Shown: positions 6,155 through 64,000 of the stretch, piece after piece
Layout: the number at the start of each line of letters is the position of its first letter
Position numbering within the stretch: the first letter of the stretch is position 1
Assembly: GCA_964016885.1 (NCBI GenBank)
Contig: OZ024741.1
Location: forward strand, 215,326,001-215,390,000
Direction: 5' to 3'
DNA length: 64,000 nt
DNA from: Eledone cirrhosa
Lineage: Eukaryota
The notes under the pieces: model-generated
What the model was told of the DNA's origin: nothing
The model's input: only the letters and a program-made list of their open reading frames with translations
Databases searched by the model: none
Translations under genes and position numbers: made by a program

Positions 6155-6488
6155 GACTGATGGTAGCTAAGATTCTTCCATAGGCGGTATGCCGGTTGAG
6201 CACTCTTTGTTCTTACAGAGCAGAGTATGATAGAATAGAAAACGAAAAATCAGTGATGTATCTGAACTCAATTTATTGTGTGTTACAATTGTTTCGCCGG
6301 CAGACAGCTCGAGACGCGATCATTGTGTGGATCTGTCTGATTCTGCACCCGCAGGTGTCCGTCGAACCTGCGGGTCCAGAATCAGACATATCCACACAAT
6401 GAACGCGTCTCGAGCTGTTTGCCGGCGAAACAATTGTAACACAAAATAAATTGAGTTCAGATGCATCACTGATTTTTCGTTTTCTATT
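6155..6488. mobile_element. ORF-less fold-back PLE pLTR element (arms 6234-6356 / 6366-6488, tail 6155-6232)
   Basis: ~123-bp inverted arms with 9-nt spacer; same family as 10473-10599 and 13917-14120; contains the hammerhead 3' half GAAA-CAATTG-TA. Confidence 0.8.
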
Positions 6489-7399
6489 TCATATATATAT
6501 ATATATATGCACACTCTAACAAATAACCCATCAGACCTGTTGAAATCATAGATTGGAATATATTGCAACAAGCGAAAAAAAAATATATAATATATATATA
6601 TATATATATGTGAGTGTGTGTGTATGTGTGTGTGTGTGTGTGTGTGTGTCTGTGTGTGTGTGTGTGTGTGTGTGTGTATGTATATATATATATATATATA
6701 TGTGTAAATAAAATAAGAATTTAAAAATAAAAACAGGCGTTATAAGGAAGACAGGGGGTAGTGGAGATGGAGGGTTGTTTTCATGGTAAAACGGTAAAAT
6801 GATAAAATGGTAAAATGGTATGATGGAAAATGTTGGAACTTTCTAAAGAGTCTGTCTAGTCAAAACACATTACTGAGATGTAAACATGGCGCAAAGGCAG
6901 TTTTTGCTCGCCATTTTTATTGCATGAATATGTTTTGTGGGAGTTGGAGATCTTCACCGGCGACGAAATTTGCAACTTGTTTATTTATTTATTTATTTAT
7001 TTATTTATTTATTAATTTATTCATTTATTTATTTATTTATTTATATATTTATTTATTTTTTGTTTATTTACCTTATATTCTTATTTATTTATATATATAT
7101 ATATTTATTCATATATATATTTATTCATATATATATATATATATATATTTATATATATATATTTATTTTCCAATTTATATATATTTTTTATTCATGTTCT
7201 GTATATATTTATTTATTTATATATTTTTATTCATTTCTCTATTTATATATATTTATATTTATTTATAATATTTATTTATATATACTTTATTTATTTATTT
7301 TTTTATTTATATATTTAATTGTTTGTTTGTTTGTTTGTTTATTTGCGGAAAATGAAAAATAAAGAAAATATAAATATAAAATATAAAACATAATATGGA

Positions 7400-8000
7400 T
7401 ATGAGGGAAGGAAAGAAACAAAACATTATAAACAAATTATAAGAAGAACGAAAGAAACAAACAAGCGTATAAAGATAGAAAGAAAGAAAGAAAGAAAGAA
7501 GGAGAAATAAGTAAATGATGAAGGAAAGAAAGAACGAATGGAGGAAAGAAAGAAAGATAAAAAGAAGGGAAGAAAAATAAGAGAAATAAAGAAGGGAGGA
7601 AAAAAGAAAGGAAGGAGGAAAGAAAGAAAGAAATAACGAAAGGAATGAAAGCAGGAAAGAAAAAATAAAGAATGAAGGAAAGAAGGAAATAAAGGAAGAA
7701 AGGAATAAGGACAGAAAGAAAAAAGGAAGGAAAGAAAGTAAGAAAGAAAGAAGGAAAGAAAGAAAGACAGAAAGATATAAGGAAAGAATGAAAGAGAAAG
7801 AAAAAGAGCGAAAGAAAGAAAGAAAGAAAGAAAGAAAGAAAGAAAGAAGGAATTAAATAGAGAAAGAAAGAAAGAAAGAAGGAAAGAAAGAAGGAAATAA
7901 AGAGAGTAAGAAAGAAGAAAATAATGGAAGAAAGAAAGAGAGAAAGAAAGAAAGTGAGAAAGAATGAGAGAGAGAAAGAAGTAAAGGAATAAGAACTAGA
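7400..8000 (+). repeat. Degenerate (GAAA)n/(GGAA)n polypurine tract
   Basis: Direct reading. Confidence 0.9.
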
Positions 8001-8427
8001 ATGTGATAAAATGTGCTATAAATGTATATAAAAGGTATAAGCTGTTACATTAGGTAGCCATGAGCGTCATCTCGATAATAACCTAACACCAACTTAACAC
8101 AAAATCTATCGACCGAATATACCAATATTTTCATATTCTCCTATTTGGAAATTCTCAATACAATTTTTTGATCATCAGAGAAAAGGAAAAATGAAAAGAG
8201 AAAGAAAAAGAAGCAAAGATGGGATATATTCATGTATGTGTGTGCGTGTGTGTGTGTGTCGCTGTGTATCCGCCTGCGTGCGTGTGTATCTGCGTGTTTG
8301 TGAGTGTATATATATATATATATATATATATATATATATATATATATATATATATGTGTGTGTTTATATGTATATATTTGCATGTATGTATATATGCATA
8401 TGTATGTATATATATATATATTAAATA

Positions 8428-59885: not shown

Positions 59886-62800
59886 TAACATTATTCTAGA
59901 AATTAATTTAATTTAAATGTTAGTTAACCTATAAATTTAATTTAATTAATATTTTATTACAGATGAGAAAATATTATGTAATCATAAATTGTGAAAAACA
60001 TTTAAATATTACTAATATATACTTAGTAATTTAATTTATAGATTAATTTTAATTTATTTAAACCTTTTATTATAATTCTTTTACAGATAAAATATAACAA
60101 AATAATATCATGTATCCAATGACGGAGAAAGAATTTTTAGTATTATAGACCTAATTAATATACATTTTGGAAATATATTTATTATTTGGTTTTAGTTTTA
60201 ATCAACCTAAAACTTTAATTTTAATTTGCTTAAAATTAGTATCCTTATACAGACGAATTGCAGAATGTCATGTAATCATAGAATGGGATGTGTTTTGGAT
60301 ATATACCTAGTTAATATATTCTGTGCAATTTTTTGAAAAAGATATGTATATGTATATGTATATGTATATGTGTGTGTTGTGTATGTGTATCTGTATGTAT
60401 GTATATGTGTGTATATATGTATATATGTATATATATATATATATATATATATATGTGTGTATATGTATGTATATGTGTATGTGTATGTATATGTATATGT
60501 ATGCGTATTAATTTTGATTTCTATTTGCATATAATTATATTATGCTATTGATGAAATACAATATCTGCTTTATGTATTGTATACCTAATTAACATATACT
60601 AATTAACGTATACTATTGAAATAAATATATAATTTTTAGTTTAGTTAACATATAATTTATATGCTACTACCGATGTAATACTTTATTTTATTTTTATTTG
60701 GGTTTCTTTTCCCTATTACTAAATTCATCTCCTAATATTGATACCATAACGTTATTAACTTTAATTTAGTTATAATGTAATTAATAATCTACTACTGTTT
60801 GACTTCAAAATTCTGCTTCAAATATTATAAACCTAACTAATTTACACCTTAGAAATCAATATGTTGACTATCTTTGGTTTAGTTAACATATGATTAATGG
60901 TATACTTATTTATTTTGAGATGCATAGATTTCGTATTTCCTAGCACTGAAAATATGTAAGAACATACATTGAATTAAGATACGGAAAATATTATATGTTT
61001 CTTGAAACATATATTTACTTTGATCCCCTTCTCCAAACCCCCCCTTTCCCCCATACTATTATCATCTGTATTTGTAAGCGTCTATATATGAATATATATG
61101 TAGGTAGGTGTCTATATAGGTTTGGGTATTTATATCTAAATATAAAAATACATATATGAGCATGCAAATATGAATGTAAGATTGTGTGTGTATATATGAT
61201 TGTACATACATATGTATGTATATATATGTATATATATGTATTATATATGTATGTGTATGTGAATGTGTTGTATGTATATGTGTATGTATGTGTATATATG
61301 TGTATGTATGTGTATGCTTGTATATATAGGAATATATATATGTGTATATATGTATGTATATGTATATGCGTGTATGTATGTATGTGTATGTGTGTTGTGT
61401 ATATATATGTATGTCTCTCTATTTATATGTTTATCTTCGTATCTATGTGATATATGTGTATGTGTGTGCACGTATGCATATGTATGTGTTTGTGTGTGTT
61501 TGTATGTGTGTGTGTATATATGTGTATGTGCGCACACTCACATACACATATATATATATATATATATGTGAGTGTGTATGTGTGTCTGTGTGTGTGTGTG
61601 TGTGTGTATGTGTATATATATATATATATATATATGTATATATATATATAGATATATATATATATATATGTATAGGTGTCTATGTGTGAATATATGTCTT
61701 TATTCGTATGTGTGTATTTATGTATGTATATATTTATGTGTATGTATGTATGTGTATGTATGTATGTATATATATATATATATATATATGTATATGTATA
61801 TATATATATGTATATTATTCTTTATTATTATTGTAATATAACTTATGTGTATATGTGTATAAGTGAGGTTGTGTATGTATATATAATATGTGTATATATA
61901 AGAGTAATGAAATATATATATATATATATATGTGCATGTCTGTTTTTTATGTGTGTGTATATATATATATATATGTATATATATATATATATGTATACGT
62001 GTGTGTATATAGATATATATATATATATACATGTGGGTGTTTGTATGTGTATTTATGGTGGTATGAGTGTGTGGATATATATGTTTATATATATATATAT
62101 ATATATATATATATATGAGTCTATGTGTGTGTGTATATATATATATATATATATATATATATATATATATGTATGTGTATATATATGTGTGTGTGTGTAT
62201 AGTGTGTGTGTATGTATGTGTGTATATATATATATCTCTATTAATGCGTGTGTGTATGTATATACATATGCCTTTTTATTATTATTTTCATTTGTATGTC
62301 TGAGTTTGGTGAGGTTGTATTGTTTTTTATGTATATACACATATATGAAAGCGTATGTATTTATTTATATGAGTATAAGTAGGTGCATATGTATGTATGA
62401 TTATATATCTAATTCTATGTATGAAGGTACATCTATATATATATATATATATACGTGTGTATGTAAGTTGTGTGTGTATGTATCTTTATGTCTATGTGAG
62501 TGTATATATATATATATATATATATATATATATATATATGTATATCGATGTGCGTATATGTATGTACATGTATGTACATGTATGTGTGTATGTATGTGTA
62601 TGTATATTTAGATGTATGTGTATGTATATGTATATATATGTATATATATATATATATATATATATATATATATATGTGTGTGTGTATATATATATATATG
62701 GATATATATCTTTATTATCTATTTTTTATATATATGTGTATGTGTGTATGTGTTGCGCGTGTGTGTGTGTATATATATATCTTTTTATATGTGTATGTGT

Positions 62801-63506
62801 ATGTTCGTGTAAGTGTATGTGTGTGTATGACTGTATATGTATGTGTGTATGTGTGTATGCGTAAATATCTCTATGTGCGCGTACATGTATGTATGTGTGT
62901 ATATATATCTGTATGTGTATGTACATTATATTATATTTATTATATTTTATTGTTTTTATTTTTTTATTTTTCTTAATTTATAGATACATTTATATTAGGC
63001 AGTCTGCTCAGACAATTGAATACTGACCCCTCCCCCCCCTCCCACCTAATTTCTGTATCTTGATCTTGAAATGTGTGTGCCAGTGTTTTATGTGAGTGAC
63101 TTAATTTCTATGTGCTTATGATTTTATATCCACATATATAAATGTGAGTGGGGGAGTGTGTGTGTTTGTATGTTCGTGGTTGTGTGTATATTTATGCATA
63201 TACGCGCATGTATGTGTGATTATACTGATATGTGTGAGTATGAAAAAATATATTTATATGCTTGACTCCATAAGTATCAATGCGCATCTTATCAGCGCAT
63301 TAAGCTTACAGAGATATTAACCTTGAAATTTTGTGTTTGCATCCATCTTTTTAGTATGCGCATACAAATTATACACACATTATTGTAAAATATGTGTAAG
63401 GATTTTACATGTATATACACACACCGAACTGCTTTTAACCCTTTGTGTTTTCATTGGTCAATTTTGAACTGATATTTTGAATTGTTGTTATTATCAATAA
63501 ATATAC

Positions 63507-63661
63507 TTCATTATTTCTGAAGACGGCGTATATATGTGTTAGGTATGTATATTTAATCTTGATAATTTGTATAATTTTGTATAATTTTGTACATAGATCT
63601 GTTGAATATGCATACCAATTATAACACATATATACCCTAGAAACGATCGTTAAATAATGAA
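63507..63661 (+). ncRNA. Type I hammerhead with very long stem II
   Basis: ttcattattt CTGAAGA c ggcgtatatatgtgtta..(~80 nt)..taacacatatataccc ta GAAA cgatcg TT aaataatgaa: 10-bp stem I, palindromic stem III, GUU triplet. Confidence 0.85.
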
Positions 63662-64000
63662 CTTTTTTTGTTTAATATAAGGAATTGTTTATTCATTATT
63701 TGTTTAATATTTTATATATATATATATATATATATATATATATATATGTGTGTGTGTGTGTGTGTATACAATTTTTTGTGTTCAGGTATGTGTGTGTTTG
63801 TGTGTCTGTCTGTGTGTGTATGACTTCCTGTATCAGAGCCTTCGTCACCGAGATCATATGACGGAAGTGTGTTGTGAAATGGAGAGAGCGGTGTAATAGA
63901 CAGATTATATAATGGTTGGATGTAGGGGGTATATATATTCATATATATACATATGAAACATATATATATATACATATACATATACATATATGTACATATA

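Follow-up and report, generated by a model that had tools for sequence, protein, structure and literature searches.

Penelope-like elements (PLEs) often carry a tail at one of the insertion's two ends, and the text of PMC8557442 that describes this says "either end", gives no count and, in its accessible part, does not state the ends as coupled (here and below, published accounts are cited from the parts accessible to us). For the Penelope elements of Adineta vaga, a tail has been reported as optional on one of the inverted pseudo-long terminal repeats (pLTRs) and antisense self-priming was favoured, the study being based on few copies and without statistics (PMC3846280). A described biochemical system is PAc, from the green anole Poseidon element, which cuts and extends both strands, has two reverse transcriptase (RT) start sites between which the tail lies and, by prediction, forms a dimer (PMC11167929). 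Here we report on inverted PLE insertions in Eledone cirrhosa, both in a microsatellite-rich window (i.e., the whole stretch of 64,000 nucleotides (nt) that was analysed, G000:C2:215326001-215390000 of the 3.0-Gb assembly) and in samples taken across the genome, and we show that nearly all of them join one short-ended to one tailed arm, with either arm being the longer one.

The short outer arm end is referred to as S and the tailed outer arm end as T, and the families are named after the window insertions starting at 10473 (F1; the one at 6155 is related), 29342 (F2), 42513 (F3), 49341 (F4), 52892 (F5), 51690 (F6; 28105 is related) and 41181 (F7; 48297 is related). Six families were followed in the genome, five with Hydra-clade motifs and F7, which is of the Neptune/Nematis type. 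Using internal coding DNA of the open reading frames (ORFs) as queries 80 loci were fetched (ORF-anchored), while queries of 111-123 nt positioned just inside S gave 137 loci once duplicates were removed (core-anchored); neither type of query includes the tail, i.e., both are tail-blind. In each search the best 40 of 790-2459 candidates were scored and the samples therefore lean toward query-like copies. The F5 terminal-pLTR query gave no match in the genome, probably because its words are too common, and an upstream stretch was used instead. Core pairs were called by script and a held-out set was collected afterwards. Loci with one end out of view were left out, as were duplicate loci and segmental duplicates (L148, L152, L158, L168, L187, L188, L225, L277 and L324), and L033 and L276 were rejected as T/T pairs, each being a separate small insertion next to a single arm. 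Sixteen pairs found with a tail-containing query (15 S/T and one T/T) were excluded from the main count as biased.

An S end was paired with a T end in 95 of the 101 head-to-head insertions in the tail-blind first and held-out samples (p~5e-22 against 0.5). Specifically, the first sample contributed 82 of 87 (52 of 55 core pairs and 30 of 32 ORF pairs) and the held-out sample 13 of 14; the remaining pairs comprise no T/T, one S/S (L195) and five with one off-site end. Insertions with a single arm ended at S in 50 cases, at T in 29 and elsewhere in two, and since single arms end at either site, an independent choice of ends would give approximately 46% S/T pairs and at most 50%. The coupling was present in all six families and in both PLE types. 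Hidden tiny partner arms in single-arm insertions were considered and are not general, with five partner-type vs eight same-type matches among 95 loci, and only at L200 and L173 does the tiny partner look real by eye. Complete inverted pairs made up 55 of the 137 core-anchored loci and 15 of the 20 ORF-anchored loci in the youngest family, in keeping with the original prediction, made from the window alone, that these elements form palindromes routinely. Taken together, these data show a strict pairing of S with T at two fixed ends, with either arm the longer, (TA)n flanks and near-blunt central junctions.

With respect to polarity the outcome was different. It had been proposed that the arm continuous with the ORF is the short-ended one and that the tail sits on the arm joined at the 5' truncation. 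In the four window insertions with ORF remnants, where polarity was established by tblastn, the ORF-continuous arm does end shortly after the hammerhead triplet (55, 58, 50 and 63 nt, i.e., 50-63 nt). In the genome samples, however, the S arm was longer in 36 insertions and the T arm in 37, and 22 were symmetric (within 30 nt); the tail is thus found equally often on either arm (36:37), the very observation that had been named as fatal to the rule. The first sample gave 32, 28 and 22, respectively (14:14 for the asymmetric ORF-anchored pairs), and the held-out sample four with a longer S arm and nine with a longer T arm. Even within the window two insertions go against the rule, 48291-48812, with a tail on each arm, and 51690-52815, where the tailed arm is the long one and continuous with the family body (reaching -755 vs -280 nt), a polarity that can be read because the family body is known from other copies. 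The four of four in the window is small-sample luck. A bias in polarity among families, suggested by the first sample (three S-long to ten T-long in F5 and 11:4 in F1, F3 and F4 together; Fisher p=0.021), was not replicated in the held-out sample (1:5 in F3 and F4) and was discarded.

Two opposing cDNAs, a cause already put forward in the original prediction, are the likeliest explanation for one tail per inverted insertion. In the reading that we consider probable, a double-strand cut leaves two 3' ends that each prime a cDNA on RNA of the same donor, one at S and the other at T, and the truncated cDNAs are end-joined; coupled twin priming of this kind is the simplest model. The sizes of the arms bear directly on a different route, in which one cDNA primed at T would fold into a hairpin and copy itself back, with resolution or re-priming at S; resolution mediated by the endonuclease (EN) has been suggested (PMC8557442). 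Such a fold-back would suit the 22 near-symmetric insertions, the private variants shared between arms and the natural quasi-palindromes at truncation hot spots in F1, F4 and F5. It predicts, however, that the tailed arm is never the shorter one, and 36 of the 73 asymmetric insertions combine a long S arm with a short T arm. Neither of these arms can be copied from the other, because the short T arm lacks the upstream part and the S arm lacks the tail; hence both arms need an RNA template and fold-back is excluded as the only route. Moreover, the perfect palindromic centre of L094 has an overlap of only 2 nt and no loop. As a general explanation we regard fold-back as unlikely, and it may be the source of some symmetric and T-long insertions.

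The two end sites expected for each family were recovered, as 284 of 295 arm ends lie no more than 6 nt from S or 10 nt from T (37 of 37 in F5), a count that takes in internal tandem junctions and duplicate loci. T lies 62-137 nt beyond S, which is the length of the tail, and in tandem copies this stretch simply forms the beginning of the following unit. The hammerhead triplet lies 64 nt from the short end in the F5 insertion at 52889-63715 and ~152 nt from it in the 41181 family, but just ~17-20 nt away in the 28105/51690 family. Both S and T adjoin (TA)n, and where copies run through a site the natural sequence ends in TAT/ATA at S in six of six families and at T in each of the four that have run-through copies, while TAT/ATA occurs at a background of 5-14% of positions. 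In the same four families a GCTCC motif is present 5-10 nt past T. We also noted a GAGC-like partner downstream of GCTCC in four families (L125 ~3003-3160; L072, L040 and L058 just past T), with the two halves ~115 nt apart in F5 and spanning a possible intron in the 5' untranslated region (UTR); the pair is a candidate protein-binding hairpin. Two further observations concern arm structure: F1 arms at L196/L029 and L192 carry a tandem run of a 55-nt pLTR segment (approximately ten copies in L196), which suggests template slippage, and the F7 copies L224 and L225, which lie 39 kb apart, are identical across 1.1 kb (flank included) and have different ends, S in one and T in the other.

In the young family F5, comparison of the arms traces both arms of an insertion to a single donor lineage. 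Between the two arms there are 4-10 events per ~2.6 kb, whereas the medians to other copies are 43-66; the closest sequence to an arm is its own partner in eight of ten cases, with a tie in one, and variants unseen in other sampled copies are common to both arms in L094, L096, L108, L116 (S-long), L121 and the window F5 insertion; the arms also match by haplotype at -14, -3637 and -4156. These data bear on dual priming that uses two RNA molecules from one donor, in which an asymmetric protein dimer would force its subunits onto different sites, S and T. Such a reaction would have the same S+T outcome, would produce shared donor variants and would not need a trailing enzyme to displace cDNA, and for L1 dual priming has been proposed and is indistinguishable there from twin priming (PMC2837659). 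It has to explain, however, what keeps two identical RNAs from ever being used at one and the same site, and why no partner RNAs from other active donors take part, given the haplotype matches, and we consider it rather unlikely.

The same comparisons speak to whether the pairs might be two independent insertions later homogenised, or fold-back artefacts of assembly or reads. Long near-perfect palindromes are a sequencing hazard, and the palindrome junctions are known here from the assembly alone. A mirrored read, however, cannot put a tail on one arm only, the arms differ by a few events, the flanks are not mirrored, old diverged insertions follow the same S/T rule and independent insertions would not anti-correlate in their ends; this explanation is highly improbable.

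At the 16 F5 central junctions we found 1-4 nt of overlap in 11, an insert of 1-2 nt in four and a 42-nt duplication in one. The 5' truncations are concentrated at about -170 in F1 and F4 and, in F5, at about -5400 (-5390 to -5445) and -5785; the -170 cluster in F1 and F4 adjoins small hairpins and initiator-like words.

On coupled twin priming, the protein of the element would cut both strands of the (TA)n target, by analogy with PAc in vitro, and a TAT/ATA patch of 3-8 nt at both S and T would aid priming. Two RT active sites, one per site, might act, for example in a dimer bound to one RNA, where the enzyme primed at T would displace the cDNA primed at S; both cDNAs would stop early, often at common strong stops, followed by head-to-head end-joining and fill-in by the host, whereas priming by a single end would give a single-arm insertion ending at S or T. 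That the template is one RNA molecule, and a circular one, is likewise conceivable. The likeness to PAc lies in the two start sites bounding the tail and in the AT-rich target, while the PAc sites are in the start of the ORF and its priming is described as non-homologous, in contrast to sites upstream of the ATG with TAT/ATA patches here; nor are the two PAc sites tied, in the accessible account, to the two ends of one inverted insertion (PMC11167929). A text search of the three supplementary files of PMC11167929, covering text and not figures, gave no match.

Antisense-transcript self-priming, the route favoured in PMC3846280, would make the head-to-head form and leave an endonuclease to trim one end to S later. 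It accounts for the orientation and for palindromes at the junctions, and a putative intron in the 5' UTR of F5 could be taken in its favour. It gives no reason, however, why exactly one end should be trimmed, on the longer or the shorter arm, and in the PAc experiments, which relied on a sense template, two start sites were located at the ends of the tail (PMC11167929); we find it very unlikely.

Coupled twin priming resembles twin and dual priming in L1, where cDNA is likewise primed from both target strands and joining of the products yields an inversion. The second L1 priming event takes place at an internal site that varies, and the resulting inversion has an internal deletion (PMC2837659), whereas here both sites are fixed and 62-137 nt apart, such that the arms overlap and a palindrome forms, in about 40-75% of the sampled loci. 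The L1-type structure of non-overlapping inverted fragments with an internal deletion was accordingly rejected for these elements, in which the arms overlap and duplicate the 3' end.

Several points weigh against coupled twin priming or the data behind it. The ORF-anchored pairs were classed by eye from BLAST tables, and two T/T structures exist outside the tail-blind count, the window insertion 48291-48812 and L013, a three-piece structure. In the older families the own arm was uniquely first in only 12 of 43 cases (2.1 expected by chance), and gene conversion between palindrome arms could be a source of arm likeness. An enrichment of junction microhomology was sought and rejected, since overlaps of at least 2 nt in six of 16 junctions are not clearly above the 23% expected, and exact symmetric junctions concentrate at the truncation hot spots (F5, F1 and F4), which fits fold-back equally. 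For the elements studied here the argument is drawn from sequence and its biochemistry is borrowed from PAc, whose priming is reported as not homologous to the cut DNA, unlike what the TA patches would imply here (PMC11167929). By sequence, one RNA molecule is indistinguishable from two RNAs of one donor.

Loci L341-L344 (G000:C2:36290961-36329726) form a single 38.8-kb head-to-head F5 insertion in which each arm has approximately three units and the left end is S, the right end T. Its six near-identical units carry 45 and 84 fixed substitutions vs two other copies, and no variant is shared pairwise by mirrored units. This fits repeated copying of one unit-length template; alternatively, the donor may have been a tandem with identical units or the number of units may be mis-assembled. 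A tentative extension, possible but improbable on balance, is that inverted and tandem PLE insertions come from one reaction, in which two coupled RTs, each primed by one end of the double-strand cut, would start at S and T on one circular RNA of unit length, set free by the pLTR hammerheads, and could copy it in several rounds, giving S/T palindromes up to 38.8 kb.

Turning to the window, self-BLAST recovered all the inverted pairs that had been named, and the nine insertions listed as having one short-ended and one tailed arm do have this anatomy. It is thus found in nine of ten window insertions, the exception being an old F7-related fold-back at 48291..48812, which has tails on both arms (81% alike). 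The F1 insertion (10472..14131, -) has its short end at 10472, an RT remnant at 12573-13918 (-) and the inverted tailed arm at 13916-14131 (+); at ~11740-12570, where the F1 EN region is missing, a 3' piece of a different hammerhead-bearing element is nested. An F1-related small symmetric fold-back is present at 6151..6488, with the tailed arm at 6151-6356 (-) and the short arm at 6365-6488 (+). The F2 insertion (29342..33123, +), from a relative of F5, comprises the inverted tailed arm 29342-30167 (-), an EN C-terminus at 30171-30281 (+) and the short end at 33123, with a tailed F5-like arm nested at 31170-31801 (-). In the F3 insertion (42513..48273, -) the short end is at 42513, the RT-EN remnant at 44871-46957 (-) and the inverted tailed arm at 46914-48273 (+). 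The F4 insertion (49341..51592, -) has its short end at 49341, an EN remnant at 50937-51311 (-), the inverted tailed arm at 51318-51592 (+) and hammerheads at 49453-49404 (-) and 51391-51440 (+). The F6 insertion (51690..52815, -) combines the long tailed arm 51690-52537 (-) with the inverted short-ended arm 52537-52815 (+), and in an F6-related small fold-back at 28105..28311 the left arm is short (-) and the right arm tailed (+). The F5 insertion is a 10.8-kb palindrome (52889..63715) with the tailed arm at 52889-58372 (-) and the short arm at 58368-63715 (+), a junction within the RT gene with a 4-nt overlap, and hammerhead-like motifs at 53224-53090 (-) and 63517-63651 (+). In the F7 fold-back (41175..41646) the left arm is tailed and the right arm short, with hammerhead cores at 41416-41382 (-) and 41460-41494 (+). 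A solo F7 tail, reaching about from S to T, is present at 27916..27989 (-) with microsatellite on either side; tail-only inverted arms also occur elsewhere in the genome sample (L077, L213 and L264).

Other window features include more single-arm hammerhead-bearing or related fragments (48925-49075, 42265-42410 and 14363-14387), decayed ORFs of non-LTR (long terminal repeat) retrotransposons with endonuclease and RT motifs recognised by eye (461-5482 and 19528-22822), and a dispersed repeat family resembling short interspersed elements (15856-16344, 31478-31759, 40029-40353 and 49144-49362), one copy of which lies within a PLE arm. An unrelated inverted structure is found at 25625-26117, within 25570-26117.

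The elements are EN-containing (EN+) PLEs, new members of known PLE types; their pLTRs stem from partial tandems, direct or inverted, with an optional tail, as is characteristic of PLEs. F5 is very young (100% identity over 486 nt in 40 of 40 among the matches listed). Its unit is 6.6 kb and tandem copies carry an intact ORF of 813 amino acids (2.4 kb; L125:3159-5597, +), with an Asn/Thr-rich linker predicted at low confidence at residues 477-572. Pfam gave neither an RT nor a GIY-YIG match, and a PDB sequence search gave one weak match, to a retron RT. The AlphaFold model of the 813-residue protein (pLDDT 85) had telomerase RTs as its top five Foldseek matches (E 8e-9 to 8e-8). At the motif level, a GIY-YIG endonuclease is present C-terminally in the same ORF (VY-x-YIG at 693-709), and Y694 and R718 are invariant in 76 homologues.

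Features given for the Hydra clade are DKT, RWK, a CxCX5C linker, and CxxC and CxH flanking E/N, without CCHH (PMC8557442). F5 has DKT (a modified DKG) at 115, RWR at 37 (a conservative variant of RWK), CNCRNKTNC at 673 (CxCX5C), CRLC at 771 and CNH at ~799, and no CCHH; DKT is also present in F1 and F3, the linker/EN motifs occur in the F1, F3 and F4 remnants and the C-terminal ones in F6, F2 resembles F5, and the flanks show the (TA)n target typical of the clade. By these protein motifs, F1, F3, F4, F5 and F6 are Hydra-type. Hydra-clade units are described as generally short (<3 kb) with tails of 30-40 nt (PMC8557442), in contrast to the 6.6-kb unit of F5 and tails of 62-137 nt here; the size descriptor is not diagnostic. 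F5 also differs in its long microsatellite-rich 3' UTR and its Asn/Thr-rich linker. F7 has, by eye from L250 and L239, a CX4CxxC linker (CIDKKCIIC/CITC), CCHH (CTEGQC, HQHAKIEH) and a C-terminal EN, and is on these motifs of the Neptune/Nematis type.

The outward-pointing hammerheads proposed for the arms were found as motifs, and not all have canonical cores. The canonical CTGANGA..GAAA is present in F4, F5, F7 and a reference copy of F3, and variant or partial cores occur in F1, F2 and F6, at the motif level; in F1 the core is GTGATCA (10527-10566 and 13950-13989) and in the 51690 family (F6) no CTGANGA was found. The F1 core is a natural G3-C8 swap, like a partial-rescue mutant in PMC11167929. 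Among the 150 Rfam matches listed (of 284) there was no hammerhead, these being microsatellite-driven microRNA matches only.

Whether the rule is new has two answers: the tail at one end is already in print qualitatively (PMC8557442, Fig. 2 legend), while the strict coupling was not found in print. Our literature search, with two key reviews and supplementary figures beyond its reach, turned up neither a tally of S/T pairs nor a twin-priming model for PLEs. We conclude with strong support that the coupling of one S with one T end is the quantified form of a feature known only in passing, and that the polarity rule is wrong. An in vitro system explaining tandem and inverted PLE insertions has been called the next important task (PMC8557442). 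Strict S+T coupling without polarity excludes an independent choice of ends, and fold-back as the sole route, and with it the two RT start sites known from in vitro work become a sharp prediction that an existing assay can address. Long palindromes are a source of hairpin RNA, instability and assembly gaps, and the genome of E. cirrhosa holds a very young and intact Hydra-type family, with identical copies, that makes palindromes of 10-39 kb.

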